A stretch of 20,000 bases of DNA from an uncultured virus (IMG/VR IMGVR_UViG_3300028833_006000) (taxonomy: Duplodnaviria; Heunggongvirae; Uroviricota; Caudoviricetes). Below the pieces are notes generated by a model that saw only the letters and a program-made list of their open reading frames with translations, was not told the origin of the DNA and did not search any database. The DNA is taken from the IMG/VR virus record IMGVR_UViG_3300028833_006000. The stretch is one strand, 5' to 3'. Both the position numbers and the translations under genes were made by a program. This document shows, piece after piece, positions 3,107 through 14,269 of the stretch; position 1 is the first letter of the stretch, and each line of letters starts with the position of its first letter.

Positions 3107-3161
3107 CTGAAAGGAGCAATAAAAACATGCGACCTTTATCTATCAAACAAACAGGAAAGGA

Positions 3162-3405: not shown

Positions 3406-4153
3406 GACAAACAGAAAAATCATATGGTATAGCTGTGGAGTATCATCAACAATTGCAGGGCTTCTCGCAGACAGAAATGGTGCTGCAGAATGGATCAGAA
3501 TCTTCCTTCCCAACGAAGACACAGACTCTGAACGCTATTTAGATGACTGTATAAAAAGATTCAACATCAATGTACAGACTATCACAGCCAACAAAAACGT
3601 TGACGAAGTTATCTTGAAGAGGAAATTCATCAACTCTCCTTTTGGTGCTCCCTGCACTTCTGTGCTTAAGAAAGAAGTCAGATTCGCCTGGGAGAAAGAA
3701 AACATCAAAGATGATGATCACATCACATACGTCTGGGGTTTCGATGTCAACGAAGCTCACAGAGCGAAAAGGATGATTGAGAGTTATCCACAGTTTGACC
3801 ATGAGTTTCCTCTCATTGATAACGGACTCACAAAAGCCGATTGCCACGGCATCATCAAAGCACTTGGCGTAAAAAGACCAAGAATGTATGATATGGGCTT
3901 TCCTAACAATAACTGCATTATGTGCGTTAAAGGCGGAATGGGATCTTTCAACCTGTTCAGACAGTACTTCCCCGAACAGTTTGACAAAAGAGCGCAGACT
4001 GAACGCCAGATAGGACATTCATGCCTCAAAAAGTGCTTTCTTGATGAACTCCCGGAAGACGCCGGAAGAAAACCGAAAACAATACCGCAGGATCTTACCG
4101 TGACAGGCGAAGCGGCTTTGCAAATCATAAACAGCAATCTGGAACAAAAATAG
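3404..4153 (+). CDS. Second PAPS-reductase-family protein (mobile-element type, degenerate PP-loop)
   Basis: WYSCGVSS PP-loop variant, APCTSVLKK, VWGFDVNEAHR, FPLID, GFPNNNCIMCVKGG. Confidence 0.8.
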   Translation: MTNRKIIWYSCGVSSTIAGLLADRNGAAEWIRIFLPNEDTDSERYLDDCIKRFNINVQTITANKNVDEVILKRKFINSPFGAPCTSVLKKEVRFAWEKENIKDDDHITYVWGFDVNEAHRAKRMIESYPQFDHEFPLIDNGLTKADCHGIIKALGVKRPRMYDMGFPNNNCIMCVKGGMGSFNLFRQYFPEQFDKRAQTERQIGHSCLKKCFLDELPEDAGRKPKTIPQDLTVTGEAALQIINSNLEQK

Positions 4154-4166
4154 AAAGGAATAGACT

Positions 4167-8971: not shown

Positions 8972-9667
8972 TTAAGATTCGATCTGTTTTTGTATGTTCT
9001 CTGACCTCAAATCATATATCTTTTGCCTAAAATCCTGCGGCAATACCACACTCACCAGAACCTGTTCCCGGTTAGATATACGTTTATATCGAAGCTCAAA
9101 ATCTGATCCAAATTCCAATCGGTCATCAGTTGGTTTGATATACTCTATCCGTAAGCCATTGATGGCAACTTCAATCGCATCACGCTTCTCATCATAATGT
9201 GTTTCAAATGTTCGCGTGGTCAATGTTTCCGCATTTGCGACCAAAGCCTTATGCTTCCTCGCTTTATATGCTTCCATCGCCCACAATATCAACATGAATA
9301 CGCCATATAATACATAAAATACCACAAGAAATAATATGACTATGACCAGCGCTATAACTGGTATGGCCGGTTCTACAGCTGACATGATCTTTGTCATCGC
9401 AGGCGGCAGATTTGGTGAAGAATATATCAATCCTATGCCTGATAGCATGCACAGGCTTCCCAGAATCAATTTAACCAGTGGAATACATCGTGATACATAT
9501 CCATATGATAAAAATGCTCGCAATATTCGAAATACTGCAAGCATAATCAGGATTGCTCCTATAGATATCAACAATGCACCGCCGAATACAGTTGGCTGTT
9601 GAAACAATGAATATGCATCTCCATGCAATAACTCATCCGAAGGAACAATAGTCTGTGTCAATAACAT
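8972..9667 (-). CDS. Membrane protein (about three TM helices plus a soluble C-terminal domain)
   Basis: Three long hydrophobic segments; 231 aa; start uncertain because the SD is weak. Confidence 0.75.
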   Translation of the reverse strand: MLLTQTIVPSDELLHGDAYSLFQQPTVFGGALLISIGAILIMLAVFRILRAFLSYGYVSRCIPLVKLILGSLCMLSGIGLIYSSPNLPPAMTKIMSAVEPAIPVIALVIVILFLVVFYVLYGVFMLILWAMEAYKARKHKALVANAETLTTRTFETHYDEKRDAIEVAINGLRIEYIKPTDDRLEFGSDFELRYKRISNREQVLVSVVLPQDFRQKIYDLRSENIQKQIES

Positions 9668-9678
9668 ATCAGGGTATA

Positions 9679-9927
9679 TTACACAGACTCCATCTTCGCC
9701 TTCAACTTGCCAAGCATCTGGTCTTTCTTTGCAGGATCGCCAACGGTCTCATCGACAACAGTTGCTGCTTCTGCATAAGCTACCACATTCGACATGAGCT
9801 TGCTCATCGCAGGATTCTTCTGAGCTGCTGCTTCATCAGCCATCCTCTCGAAAGCCTGTCCCAAAGGCGTAGATCTGTCAATCTGCATATTCTCCTTATC
9901 AATAACGATATTATCTGTTCCTGGCAT
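9679..9927 (-). CDS. Small hypothetical helical protein (82 aa)
   Basis: Start revised to ATG 9927 (SD GAAAGGAG at 9942-9935). Confidence 0.75.
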   Translation of the reverse strand: MPGTDNIVIDKENMQIDRSTPLGQAFERMADEAAAQKNPAMSKLMSNVVAYAEAATVVDETVGDPAKKDQMLGKLKAKMESV

Positions 9928-9967
9928 ATTAGTCGCTCCTTTCAGAATAAATTGTTCCAACACTCAA

Positions 9968-9996
9968 AATATAGCAAAAATCTCCTCATTTGTCAA
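9968..9996 (-). promoter_or_regulatory. SigA-like promoter with extended -10
   Basis: TTGACA (9996-9991), 17 nt ending TGC, TATATT (9973-9968). Confidence 0.7.
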
Positions 9997-10019
9997 CAGA
10001 TTTGGCATAGATCCAAGCT

Positions 10020-10283
10020 TTACAAATCAGAAATTTCCACAACAGGCTCTGACCTGCTGACATCTGCCATCTGCTCCAAATGTGCTTTCGTCTGAACCAA
10101 AGCCAAAATCGTACGCACAACGTCATCATCCTGAGGCTGATATGATTTCAAATATGATATGGCATCTGACACAGCTTTGATATCACGCTCAAATGCCATT
10201 GCACCAGATAATTCCCTCGGTGCTGCATCATGTATGATCAATGGCTCATCTAAATTTATCACAGGTTCTGTCATCGAACTCAC
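10020..10283 (-). CDS. Hypothetical protein, translationally coupled to the upstream protease gene
   Basis: GTGA start/stop overlap at 10283-10280; 87 aa. Confidence 0.7.
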   Translation of the reverse strand: MSSMTEPVINLDEPLIIHDAAPRELSGAMAFERDIKAVSDAISYLKSYQPQDDDVVRTILALVQTKAHLEQMADVSRSEPVVEISDL

Positions 10284-11104
10284 CCCTTCAAAAATGAAAA
10301 TGTTATTTCCGAATATTCAGGTTTCTCGCTAAGCAATTTGATCACGTTCTCAGCATGTTCTGCCTGAAGCTTCATCCGCCATGTCTTGCTATCCTTATGG
10401 AAAAAGAAGCCGTCAGCTTTCAACAAATCTTTCTGGTCATATGTCCGACCCGTGGCCTGGATATATGTAATAGCCGAAACATGCATCTCAGATGCCGACT
10501 GTTTATAATATTCCCGGCAGCCGATGGACGCCAGAAATGAAACTTCCGCCGATTCATCATCTATCTGCTTCTCCCAAACCTGCTCAATGGAATTCCACCT
10601 ATAACCAGCAGCTTTCAGATGCTCACGCTGTTCATAACAATTCTTAACGCAGATAATCTCATCTGACGGCAATGTATAATCAATCGCGTGTGGTACATAT
10701 GCGTCCATGATCCTGCGGACTTTATTCTGGTCCGATGACCATGTGTCATGGTAAAAATCATCGACCGTAAGAATACCCATATCGATAGCCGCATATGCCA
10801 AACGAGCATATGCCTCATAGAAAGGAGCCTGATGTCCTGTATTTCCGTGAAGCATCTGATCAATATGGTGTGAAAGCTCATGGATGCAGCATTTTGCCAT
10901 ATGCCTCTGCCCCAGACGAGCATTGTACACCTGTATATGTTTTGTCTGGGAATTATACATTCCGGAGCTGGACTTGACTTCCTTTGGCATTATCTCAATC
11001 GTATAGGTATGCAACGGAAGTCTCATCGGTCCTTCAACATCAGCATATGCAACATCAATGATATCATCCATGATACGCTTAATCCGCTTATCCAACGTGT
11101 TCAT
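10280..11104 (-). CDS. SprT/zincin-like HExxH metalloprotease with two small C-terminal LK..G[YF]...W repeats
   Basis: CCIHELSHH..GHQAPF motif; repeats YEQREHLKAAGYRWNSIEQVWEK and YDQKDLLKADGFFFHKDSKTWRM; SD AGGAGG. Confidence 0.75.
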   Translation of the reverse strand: MNTLDKRIKRIMDDIIDVAYADVEGPMRLPLHTYTIEIMPKEVKSSSGMYNSQTKHIQVYNARLGQRHMAKCCIHELSHHIDQMLHGNTGHQAPFYEAYARLAYAAIDMGILTVDDFYHDTWSSDQNKVRRIMDAYVPHAIDYTLPSDEIICVKNCYEQREHLKAAGYRWNSIEQVWEKQIDDESAEVSFLASIGCREYYKQSASEMHVSAITYIQATGRTYDQKDLLKADGFFFHKDSKTWRMKLQAEHAENVIKLLSEKPEYSEITFSFLKG

Positions 11105-11161
11105 ACAAAAAACAACACCTCCTGCTCATTCATAACGGAGGGCAATCAAACATCCCGAACC

Positions 11162-11344
11162 TTATGGTTCAAGAAAAAGATCAGGATCAACCATTTCATC
11201 AATGTTGTCCCAGTCATCATATTCATCTTCCTGCTCTGCTGCTTTCAGGTCGCCGGCATGGCCATCACTCAAAAACTTATAAAACAGATATGCGACCATT
11301 CCAATAAAAGAAATAACCAAACAACATTTGAAAAAATTCTTCAT
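11162..11344 (-). CDS. Small single-TM protein with acidic tail
   Basis: SD GGAGGA 7 nt before ATG 11344; MKNFFKCCLVISFIGMVAYLFYKF followed by a D/E-rich tail. Confidence 0.7.
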   Translation of the reverse strand: MKNFFKCCLVISFIGMVAYLFYKFLSDGHAGDLKAAEQEDEYDDWDNIDEMVDPDLFLEP

Positions 11345-11395
11345 GAAATCATCCTCCATCGATATGCTGACATGATATGGTATCGTACACTCTTT

Positions 11396-11424
11396 AATAT
11401 ATCATAAAACATCTCATAAATCAA
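11396..11424 (-). promoter_or_regulatory. SigA-like promoter with extended -10
   Basis: TTGATT (11424-11419), 17 nt ending TGA, TATATT (11401-11396). Confidence 0.55.
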
Positions 11425-11435
11425 CATATTTCAAC

Positions 11436-11477
11436 AAAAAGCGGAGAGGCCCGTCACGCTGATAACGAAGCCTCTCC
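11436..11477 (-). terminator. Rho-independent terminator
   Basis: GGAGAGGC (11443-11450)/GCCTCTCC (11470-11477) stem followed on the - strand by GCTTTTT. Confidence 0.75.
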
Positions 11478-11503
11478 AGAAAGGAACACATATTGGAACC
11501 CGT
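11436..11503 (-). ncRNA. Candidate ~68-nt sRNA with an anti-Shine-Dalgarno segment
   Basis: Lies between a near-consensus promoter and a terminator; contains AUAUGUGUUCCUUUCU immediately 5' of the terminator stem. Confidence 0.6.
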
Positions 11504-11509
11504 GAAAGA

Positions 11510-11538
11510 ATTATACCACAATATCCTGTGTTTCTCAA
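11510..11538 (-). promoter_or_regulatory. Near-consensus SigA promoter driving the candidate sRNA
   Basis: TTGAGA (11538-11533), 17 nt ending TGTGG, TATAAT (11515-11510). Confidence 0.75.
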
Positions 11539-11545
11539 ATAGTTT

Positions 11546-14203
11546 TTAAGGTTTTGTATAAGAATATTTTCCCCATTCACTCTTCGTGCCGTCAGACATT
11601 ACAGACTGAACACGGAAATAATATGTCCTGCCGGATTTCATACCACTAATGATAACCGAAGTACCGGAAATTGACATCGATGCCATCTTGGAAGAATATG
11701 ATGCGTTGCTATAAATCTCGACATTGTATGACGATGCCGATACAACAGCGTCCCACATCAAACGCATCTTACCATCATTCGCACTCTTCACAACAATATT
11801 CTGTGGAACCTTAGATGTCACAACAGGCTGTGTCGAACCACCTGATCCTGAGGATCCATATTTATACGAGCATGTAGTCCAAGGACTCTGAAGGCCTGTT
11901 GCACTAATGGCTCTCACACGAACATAATATGTTGTGCCGGACTTGATACCATTGATACGAAGAACAGTGCCTGTTACAGATGTCTTTGCGATCGTTGACG
12001 CGAAGTTTGAATCCTTACTGATCTCAATTGCATATGATGATGCATTAGGTACGCTTGACCATGTAGCCCTTGCAATCGTACTGTCAACGCTCTCTACAGA
12101 CACCTTCGCCGGAGCGGATATAGTTGTTGTGCTTGCGCTGTCAGGCAGATTCTCTGAAGAAGAATCTGACACAAACTGGATGCGCAGATAAGTCCAATCA
12201 CTTAAAGCACCATCGGCACCGACTGACTGCAAGCAGACATAATAAGTTCTGTTCGCTTTAATGCCGGTAAGGTTAAATACCGTACCGCTTGTGTTCAAAT
12301 TGCCTGCAACAGTACCGTTCTCAGAATCGATACGCACATAGACATTGGTAGATTTAGCTGCAGAGCCTGCTGTCCATGTAATGCGTGCTGATGAGTCTGA
12401 AGACTTCGTATATGCTGCATTTGTAGGAGCACCAAGCGTTACGGTCTGATCACCATTATCCTCTTCCGTATTTGTCGGATTTATTACAAGCGATGTCCAA
12501 TCCGAATACGTAGTCTTACCGCTCACATATCGATATGCGCGCACATATGCATACAATGTCATATCACGGCTATATCCTGTGATATGGACCTTTGTTGTGT
12601 TGGCATTCATTGCCACAAGCTGATCAGTCTTATTTGCATCCCTATACAGATAAATTGCATATCCGGACGCATTAGACACCGTATTCCATGCCAGATCAAT
12701 AGTGGAATCGGTCACATCAGTTATCTTAAAGCCTGTGGGCGCATCCAATGCAGTTTCACTGGTATCATTACGAATCGTGAAATTGCCATTCACATAAGTA
12801 ACCTGGGCCCACTCTGAATAATAGGTTGTGCCATTGTCTGTACCAACTGTACGAATCTTAATCTTCAGATTTCGCCCGTTCACATTCGTGATCTTGATAT
12901 GATTCAAAACAACAGACATGGAACCGATCAGATTACCGGTATTATAGTTATATGCCTGGATCTCATAATTAGCTGCACCGGGAACATCTGACCAAACAAG
13001 TTTTACACTATCTTCTACTGCATCATACATTCCGTACAGATTATATGGTGCATCAAGGGCGATGGCACCTGCCGGATGTGTACCTGTTGAGTCATAATAT
13101 GTAGGCACATAGTCCGTTGTTGACACGGTAGGAACCCAAGAAGATGACCATGTGGACGCAACTACATGTTCTCTGGATGAAGTATCAAATCTCTTCAAAT
13201 TCGCATTGGATACATTGAAGAAATAATAGTCACCAAGGGAATCATCCCATGTTGCATCTACAGCATAATATTTATTGTCATCAAGCCTTACGACATTCCA
13301 TGCATGGCTATCAGATAACACCGTCATTGTGTCAATACCCATAGCATTGCACATCATCGTCATAACTTCGGAATATCCCGCACATACTGTCTTGTGCTGG
13401 ATCAAAGTGGAATATATGGACTGATCATATGCCCCAGTCACATACTCCGTGTAATCACGCAGCATATTATGTGCGGCACGTTCCATCATATACGTGGTGG
13501 CGCCGGCAGAAGAACATGTTGCGATCCAACTATCTAATTCAGCAAAAAGGGCGTCAGTGGTAGCTGCTCTGGCTGAACCAGAAGCAAAAGCATCATAAAT
13601 GGTAAACCAGATATTCGTAGATGTTGTTAAGAATACCGATGATGCGAAATAATACTGTGGATTGTTATACAGGAACAACTGTGCCACAGCAAAAGCCTGC
13701 TGTTTCGTCAAACCGTACTCTGAGAAATTGATACTGCTTGTCACATAATAAGAGTAGCTTGTTGTGGAATACTTCGTGGCATCCACGTTTGAGCTATTCA
13801 GATATACAGATAAAACACTATCATAAGCGTCATACAACGCTCTTTCGTTTGCTGATAATCTTGATCTTAATGTCGGGGACACATAAGCGGAATAATCATG
13901 CGATCCATAAAAATCACCGCTAATGGCTCCTGCATATGATTCGTTGATAATTGCCTGGTCATCAATACCCTGGCCTGCTGCCACGGAGATACTGACAATT
14001 TCAGGCTCCAACGCTCCTTCCTCCAATGTTGCATCACTTACAATACCTGATGCTTCCTCAAATGAAAATTCACCTGAGATACCTGCGTCGTCATCGCCTG
14101 CCGCGTATACGGGCATTGACCCGAAAGACATCGAACAGGCCATGAGCGCTGCCAAAGCGCCGCTGGACAATCTCGCCCAAAATTTGTGCAGTTTCATAGA
14201 CAT
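11546..14203 (-). CDS. Secreted transglutaminase-like (Cys-His-Asp) protein with about five fibronectin type III domains
   Basis: Signal peptide ending ..PVYA; VCAGYS / SHAWNVV / AVDATWDD triad; repeated AP..W..V..A..Y.I..Y..RVRA..S.W Fn3 units. Confidence 0.88.
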   Translation of the reverse strand: MSMKLHKFWARLSSGALAALMACSMSFGSMPVYAAGDDDAGISGEFSFEEASGIVSDATLEEGALEPEIVSISVAAGQGIDDQAIINESYAGAISGDFYGSHDYSAYVSPTLRSRLSANERALYDAYDSVLSVYLNSSNVDATKYSTTSYSYYVTSSINFSEYGLTKQQAFAVAQLFLYNNPQYYFASSVFLTTSTNIWFTIYDAFASGSARAATTDALFAELDSWIATCSSAGATTYMMERAAHNMLRDYTEYVTGAYDQSIYSTLIQHKTVCAGYSEVMTMMCNAMGIDTMTVLSDSHAWNVVRLDDNKYYAVDATWDDSLGDYYFFNVSNANLKRFDTSSREHVVASTWSSSWVPTVSTTDYVPTYYDSTGTHPAGAIALDAPYNLYGMYDAVEDSVKLVWSDVPGAANYEIQAYNYNTGNLIGSMSVVLNHIKITNVNGRNLKIKIRTVGTDNGTTYYSEWAQVTYVNGNFTIRNDTSETALDAPTGFKITDVTDSTIDLAWNTVSNASGYAIYLYRDANKTDQLVAMNANTTKVHITGYSRDMTLYAYVRAYRYVSGKTTYSDWTSLVINPTNTEEDNGDQTVTLGAPTNAAYTKSSDSSARITWTAGSAAKSTNVYVRIDSENGTVAGNLNTSGTVFNLTGIKANRTYYVCLQSVGADGALSDWTYLRIQFVSDSSSENLPDSASTTTISAPAKVSVESVDSTIARATWSSVPNASSYAIEISKDSNFASTIAKTSVTGTVLRINGIKSGTTYYVRVRAISATGLQSPWTTCSYKYGSSGSGGSTQPVVTSKVPQNIVVKSANDGKMRLMWDAVVSASSYNVEIYSNASYSSKMASMSISGTSVIISGMKSGRTYYFRVQSVMSDGTKSEWGKYSYTKP

Positions 14204-14269
14204 GACCCCTTTCTGCTAAAATATTTTGTTAAAATTGCGTAAAAAACACCACTGTCGCAGTTTATATAT

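Follow-up and report, generated by a model that had tools for sequence, protein, structure and literature searches.

FinP of the FinP/traJ fertility-inhibition pair and the RNAs of type I antitoxins are short antisense RNAs, encoded in cis opposite their targets, that occlude a ribosome-binding site (RBS) by extended pairing. Few trans-acting small RNAs (sRNAs) that act on the transfer genes of their own plasmid have been described. The nearest found in the literature is QfsR of the Agrobacterium Ti plasmid, which pairs in trans with the polycistronic transfer-operon mRNA (trbK) of that plasmid; Hfq is needed in a reporter assay, chromosomal targets are described as well, and overproduction raises transfer (10.1101/533729). 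XrrA and XrrB of the Bacillus anthracis plasmid pXO1 are trans-acting sRNAs that have mainly chromosomal targets and are controlled by AtxA (PMC7843513). DapZ and MicL belong to a class of 3'-end sRNAs that have promoters of their own (PMC7038943).

The results presented here concern a cassette in a 20,000-nucleotide stretch of DNA (the window). It is somewhat probable that this cassette specifies an approximately 68-nt trans-acting sRNA, predicted to block translation of the gene of a 129-aa membrane protein in the transfer region. The cassette, its conservation and a 17-nt complementarity in a relative, the 3.1-Mb MAG of an uncultured Lachnospiraceae (G001), are present in the DNA itself. 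The cassette is real and conserved; the target prediction is statistically strong but comes from a single lineage. The best reading is a new family of plasmid-encoded trans-acting sRNA, of a known kind, that represses a transfer-region gene. The literature searched, in which subscription papers were thinly covered, held no description of the cassette RNA or of the plasmid family.

Like QfsR, the cassette RNA is plasmid-encoded and would act in trans on a transfer-operon mRNA of its own plasmid. Unlike QfsR, it has a predicted perfect pairing of 17 nt from the Shine-Dalgarno (SD) sequence to the AUG, it is predicted to repress, and the sample examined revealed no strong target in the host. The host in the present case, assigned by binning alone, is probably a Firmicute, and the sequences were compared solely via a blank Rfam scan. 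The RNA shares with XrrA and XrrB a large Firmicute plasmid, trans action and predicted pairing at translation starts, whereas it is shorter, has one seed and is aimed at the element's own transfer region. Like DapZ and MicL, it has a promoter of its own where a gene on the same strand ends, and its terminator probably also serves the mRNA of that gene, but its promoter lies just past the stop codon rather than inside the ORF and is plasmid-borne. The likeness to FinP and the type I antitoxins is that of a short RNA predicted to occlude the RBS of one gene by extended pairing; unlike those RNAs, the cassette RNA and its target lie in separate regions, and the ORF on the opposite strand is not conserved.

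Anatomy and conservation of the cassette

The features of the cassette and its neighbours are collected in Table 1. A near-perfect promoter directly after the stop codon of the fibronectin type III (Fn3) gene, reported in the earlier note, was confirmed by direct reading, as was the lack of any SD-led sense ORF between promoter and terminator. The -35 element lies 8 nt past the Fn3/transglutaminase stop (11546). A score of 11/12 was reached at 6 of the 64 sites detected in the promoter scan; shuffled sequences yield 51.1 sites, so little can be concluded from the consensus by itself. The terminator proposed about 70 nt downstream also stands, as a 68-nt unit with hairpin and U tail, except that the hairpin is longer than had been written: it has about 15-16 bp with one bulge, and a simple terminator scan did not list it. 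The U tract probably serves the Fn3 mRNA as well.

Table 1. Features of the cassette and adjoining genes (window coordinates)
Feature	Position	Strand	Remark
Upstream gene, 885-aa transglutaminase-like + Fn3 protein	11546..14203	-	Pfam PF01841, PF00041
Promoter, sigma70-type TTGAGA-17-TATAAT with extended TG	11510..11538	-	11/12 score
Predicted 68-nt small RNA	11436..11503	-	5' start inferred from -10 spacing
Seed AUAUGUGUUCCUUUCU, largely single-stranded, anti-SD and anti-spacer	11478..11493	-	
Long hairpin (terminator stem), conserved upper stem and loop GUUA-n-CAGCG-URAC	11442..11478	-	
U tract of intrinsic terminator	11436..11440	-	five U
Separate promoter of downstream gene, TTGATT-17-TATATT with TG	11396..11424	-	
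Downstream 60-aa ORF, hydrophobic N-terminal segment and acidic tail	11162..11344	-	not predicted target

The 68-nt RNA folds at -24.9 kcal/mol (z -2.95), and 2 of 200 shuffles fold equally well. Its 5' part, 26 nt, is open, opening the seed costs 0.2-3.0 kcal/mol in three alleles, and all three (window, G001 and the metagenome locus L003) adopt the terminator stem when folded. Rfam 15 covariance models gave no match in the window at E<=1; at E<=5 across four homologous loci, there were two weak matches, neither located at the cassette. An RNA sequencing run (X3) yielded a single contig, 9071-14248, with its start close to the Fn3 promoter and no break at the terminator. Transcription of the region is suggested, together with some contribution of read-through or of DNA; a contig of this kind cannot resolve a discrete RNA.

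The cassette occupies the 3' end of the Fn3 gene in the window, and this adjacency is repeated in L002, L004 and G001. The gene that follows has an equivalent promoter of its own in L002 (TTGATA-17-TATTAT), and a counterpart of the 60-aa ORF is present in L002 and G001. In L003, the 3' half of the Fn3 gene is lost and a TnpB gene stands in place of the 60-aa ORF, yet the cassette is retained, which unties it from the downstream gene. The rearranged segment (L003:63-2775) carries an Fn3 gene cut to 370 aa and an IS605-type TnpB. A riboswitch or leader attenuator of the downstream ORF was rejected, given the separate promoter, the replacement of the ORF in L003 and the terminator stem folded by all alleles. 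A leader peptide was likewise rejected, as the sense frame stops after 8 codons in L002 and L004. Further downstream in the window (10280-11104, - strand), a 274-aa HExxH (SprT-like) gene is an accessory insertion: in contigs from X5 and X6, just 11 letters separate 10293/10294 from 11160, and the gene is absent there in L002 and G001.

Among 16 metagenome loci with an Fn3 relative, the cassette was found in three, L002, L004 and L003, which are the three closest (Fn3 identity of at least 52%). A pattern scan of 185,579 genomes gave five matches, of which one, G001, is real; the other four GTDB matches, without the promoter-hairpin-U context, are chance. L002, L004 and G001 are one lineage, and three lineages are known in total, including the window and L003. 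The promoter is at an equal position in the relatives, TTGATA-17-TATACT in L002 and L004 and TTGATA-17-TATAAT in L003. UGUUCCUUUC is invariant in all four aligned sequences and is preceded in each by a TTGAnA-17-TATAnT promoter. A stem of 14-16 bp and the loop word CAGCG recur in all lineages, a U-rich tail occurs in all relatives, and the upper stem and loop are invariant across lineages except at two positions.

Between the window and its distant relative L002, the RNA core is 46/52 identical (88%), versus 55-66% for the flanks (Fn3 3' end 183/300, promoter 19/29, downstream spacer 50/91, downstream ORF 103/186); against L003, the core is 40/53 identical. Stem changes between lineages preserve pairing, and two pairs are altered on both sides; covariation in the stem was not above shuffles (59/500, from four sequences with the window row misaligned by one base). 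In close strains, the seed is unchanged in 4/4, the promoter hexamers are unchanged (the -35 being covered in three) and the lowest stem pair is lost. The U tail is longer by 1-2 U in X5 and X8.

The cassette is single-copy in both the window's record (G000) and G001. Wider searches added no relative. DNA similarity search gave weak partial matches alone, to four plasmid and ten phage records (E 0.08-0.9); pattern scans of IMG/VR turned up 1, 0, 0 and 2 matches, all of which lack the cassette anatomy, and IMG/VR protein scans no relative. A model of the RNA run across 151 family genomes scored above 33 bits in G001 alone, and 13 weaker matches proved on inspection to be generic terminators or antisense RBSs. 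G001 was also alone among 401 family genomes in having full Fn3 and VWA-like orthologues.

Predicted targets

The earlier note had sought the targets of the anti-SD segment in the window itself and in host genes. The complementary sites are there, GAAAGGAA at 670 and 3155 and GAAAGGA at 3109, while those placed at 4154 and 9942 are at 4153 and 9943. There is no start codon within the 18 nt that follow the match at 3155. AGAAAGGA is the ordinary, contig-wide SD of the element (18 on the + strand, 2 on the - strand), and the sites therefore carry little weight. Among 85 start regions of the window's contig, the best (-23.7 kcal/mol) was equalled by 60% of 300 shuffles that preserved the anti-SD; no target on this contig beats shuffles, and the named sites are not supported. 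The case for host genes is weak: across 266 start regions sampled from 315 kb of host-like contigs, the RNA matches at most 10-11 nt. A match of 11 nt between the RNA 5' end and genome position 22080 was rejected, as its order relative to the SD is wrong and its size is that expected by chance. A peptide encoded in cis was rejected too: an SD-TTG ORF (EPVKEL...) does exist on the opposite strand of the window, but it has no start codon in 3/3 relatives. What holds of the stand-alone trans-acting silencer originally proposed is a conserved promoter, seed and stem, a next gene with its own promoter (window and L002) and a specific predicted target in a relative, in place of the SD sites first named.

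In all of G001, the best non-self match of the RNA model is antisense to the RBS of a 129-aa gene on contig C73 (C72 is a reverse-complement duplicate of C73, 99.97%, and was left out of counts). The G001 allele can form 17 contiguous pairs over the SD, the spacer and the A of the AUG. The window allele has a 16-nt perfect match to the same site, and the L003 allele 11 contiguous pairs and a second helix, with a lead of 0.2 kcal/mol. Extra pairing of the 5' end of the window allele with codons 2-3 was not significant (1668/5000 shuffles). By statistics computed after the site had been spotted, shuffling the segment 5' of the anti-SD 5000 times never produced a 17-nt match in any start region of the element, and a positional model expects 0.0012 such sites. 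The G001 element has 43 GAAAGGAA RBSs; any two of them have at most 6 further nt in common, versus 9 for the RNA and its target.

By duplex energy, the 129-aa gene is rank 2 of 351 element start regions; on that measure alone other genes come first, a P4-type primase in the case of the G001 allele. With opening energies, it is rank 1 of 351 for the window, G001 and L003 alleles, ranks that are not independent because the alleles share the core. Secondary sites are the RBS of pilT, 14 nt (77/3000 shuffles on contig C57, 96/5000 on a larger set), and that of a DUF4317 gene among the clustered pilus genes, which comes second for the G001 allele when accessibility is included.

Three co-oriented genes follow a TTGATA-17-TATAAT promoter, and the target is the third of them; it starts 30 nt after a 236-aa gene and lies two genes before mobL. 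The three genes are predicted to form an operon, with a VirB1-like lysozyme gene on one side and the MobL relaxase cluster on the other. The 129-aa protein combines a basic N-terminal helix with two hydrophobic stretches. Its homologues comprise 31 clusters at 55-96% and 30 representatives in a wider library. The protein has no Pfam or NCBIfam family match, and no Foldseek match for its AlphaFold model (pLDDT 64.5); the best ESM Atlas result, 0.80, is a lead only. It has no significant match to a syntenic 174-aa Streptomyces protein.

The target RBS is known from one lineage, G001, as the window's contig does not include the transfer region; the window's lineage would be expected to carry the same site. 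Orthologue DNA beyond G001 was not found in viral contigs, plasmids, 24 genus genomes or 401 order genomes. Several orthologous proteins have a called in-frame extension, MVKS- (P0109-P0111, 57-80% identical to the orthologue P0113), MEI- (P0108) and MFIVAVMNR- (P0338), so the sequence preceding MGTF departs from that of the G001 site. Such differences may reflect either loss of the site or its co-variation with a start further upstream.

Several features expected of a trans-acting sRNA were found: a promoter and terminator of its own without a conserved ORF, a conserved and accessible seed and, in G001 only, a distant mRNA site beyond chance. The RNA would be transcribed from its own strong promoter, end at the terminator of the Fn3 gene in the manner of DapZ and MicL, and pair in trans over the SD, spacer and start codon of the 129-aa gene mRNA. 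The paired RBS would be occluded and translation of the membrane protein blocked. Because the target is the last gene of the predicted three-gene operon, the RNA may tune one transfer component apart from its operon. Weaker action at the pilT and DUF4317 RBSs is conceivable, and these sites suggest a small transfer and pilus regulon. The cassette offers a concrete system, in which a predicted 68-nt RNA and a 17-nt site would be linked to a conserved but uncharacterised membrane protein encoded within a MobL transfer region.

Alternative readings

The seed is the complement of a consensus SD and an A/C-rich spacer, and the RNA might instead dampen translation broadly, with many genes modestly repressed and the 129-aa gene merely the best of them. 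The number of GAAAGGAA RBSs on the G001 element (43) and the further good sites at pilT (14 nt) and the DUF4317 gene fit such an action, as does the mean duplex energy over the 85 start regions of the window's contig, which beats fully shuffled seeds (1% of 300). When the anti-SD is kept, however, the mean is unexceptional (18% of shuffles). One site, moreover, is ahead by 2.5 kcal/mol for two of the three alleles and exceeds the RBS-versus-RBS null. Broad dampening is considered unlikely.

It is improbable, though conceivable, that the RNA is a trans-encoded antitoxin. The 129-aa protein would then be toxic if unchecked, and its distant RNA would give addiction or kill recipients of a partial element. 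The target is small and has the two hydrophobic stretches and basic N-terminal helix already described, and near-perfect pairing with an RBS is antitoxin-like in the type I sense. The target, however, is co-operonic with transfer-region genes and lacks a Pfam or NCBIfam family match, typical type I toxins are smaller, and the genes of the RNA and the target do not overlap. The classical cis form of a type I antitoxin, which had been suggested, is not supported, as the TTG ORF is not conserved and has no start codon in any of the three relatives.

It is very improbable that there is no functional sRNA at all, the hairpin being the Fn3 terminator or a read-through attenuator, the promoter incidental and the anti-SD due to chance or to an inverted RBS-like stretch. 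Promoter-like sites are indeed common (64 versus 51 expected), the X3 contig crosses the terminator and there are just three independent lineages. On the other side, the position of the promoter is maintained even though its spacer has diverged (19/29), conservation is higher in the unpaired 5' part than in the coding flanks, the downstream gene has its own promoter, and L003 has kept the cassette despite having lost the downstream gene and the 3' half of Fn3.

Least probable is a protein-binding or decoy hairpin with a secondary seed match. In its favour, the upper stem and loop, invariant bar two positions, may exceed the needs of termination; against it, the seed, though unpaired, is no less invariant and finds a specific site of complementarity, and no candidate binding protein was identified. 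The conservation of the loop sequence is not accounted for by pairing with the target. A CRISPR-repeat (crRNA-like) origin was rejected, the element's repeat sharing just the word GGGAGAG with the G001 allele; by eye, the repeat hairpin and the ATTGAAAT end are absent from the window and L003 alleles.

The element carrying the cassette

The window lies at the end of a record of 72,270 bases, which is classified in IMG/VR as a provirus and is present in sheep-gut runs. Of the 82 ORFs called on this record, 53 match the 199-kb contig C57 of G001, largely collinearly, and C57 carries type IV pilus genes. A core 551-aa VWA-like protein has matches on three plasmids of actinobacteria (182-639 kb) and in no phage record. 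Contig C73 of G001 encodes the MobL relaxase, a lysozyme-domain protein, a VirB4-like fragment, a topoisomerase and a TQ adhesin; its relaxase and the VWA-like protein of the window's contig have the same three plasmids as best matches.

By tetranucleotide profile, C73, C28 and C110 cluster with C57, away from 17 other sampled contigs that include host-like ones. Protein clusters of C57 and C73 list contigs of identical sizes, up to 363,457 bases (for example 363457, 351136, 337141, 289113, 279479 and 247391), and a 231,921-base contig is listed both for P0113 and for a protein 91.8% identical to the VWA-like protein of the window's contig. Judged from sequence, the element looks like one conjugative megaplasmid of about 350 kb and not a phage, the G001 contigs appearing to form a single replicon. 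The IMG/VR record is then probably a misclassified megaplasmid fragment, in that its relatives have MobL, transfer and pilus genes and match large plasmids, not phages.

Tentatively, in this rumen megaplasmid family an RNA encoded far from the transfer region may provide RNA-only fertility inhibition or a post-transfer timer, silencing the 129-aa component (and the PilT ATPase) in established hosts and being absent from fresh recipients, or it may double as a trans antitoxin. The cassette would give access to regulation in what seems to be an undescribed family of very large plasmids of the gut, with tRNA arrays, tmRNA, cas genes and pili.

Several other loci of the element were observed. C57 has two tRNA arrays (42 tRNAs) and a tmRNA (G001:C57:16612-20111 and 165465-170963). 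A cas3-cas4-cas1-cas2 cluster, its Cas1 nearest type I-C, lies beside a few degenerate repeats at a contig end (G001:C28:1-4644). A block 76-88% identical to G001 (G000:C1:35603-43736) encodes an AAA ATPase, the 551-aa VWA-like protein, a Clp-like ATPase and a helicase-like protein; the VWA-like protein is also found on plasmids of Streptomyces, Rhodococcus and Gordonia. A stand-alone 418-aa reverse transcriptase (PF00078), 71% identical between lineages (G000:C1:16259-17515 and G001:C57:61309-62565), is followed in both by about 850 nt without a called long ORF, and could be a retron-like or unclassified reverse transcriptase unit of the plasmid core. Finally, a repeat of about 121 nt occurs three times, about 3 kb apart, with further repeats among endonuclease-like ORFs, at G001:C73:43412-49586.
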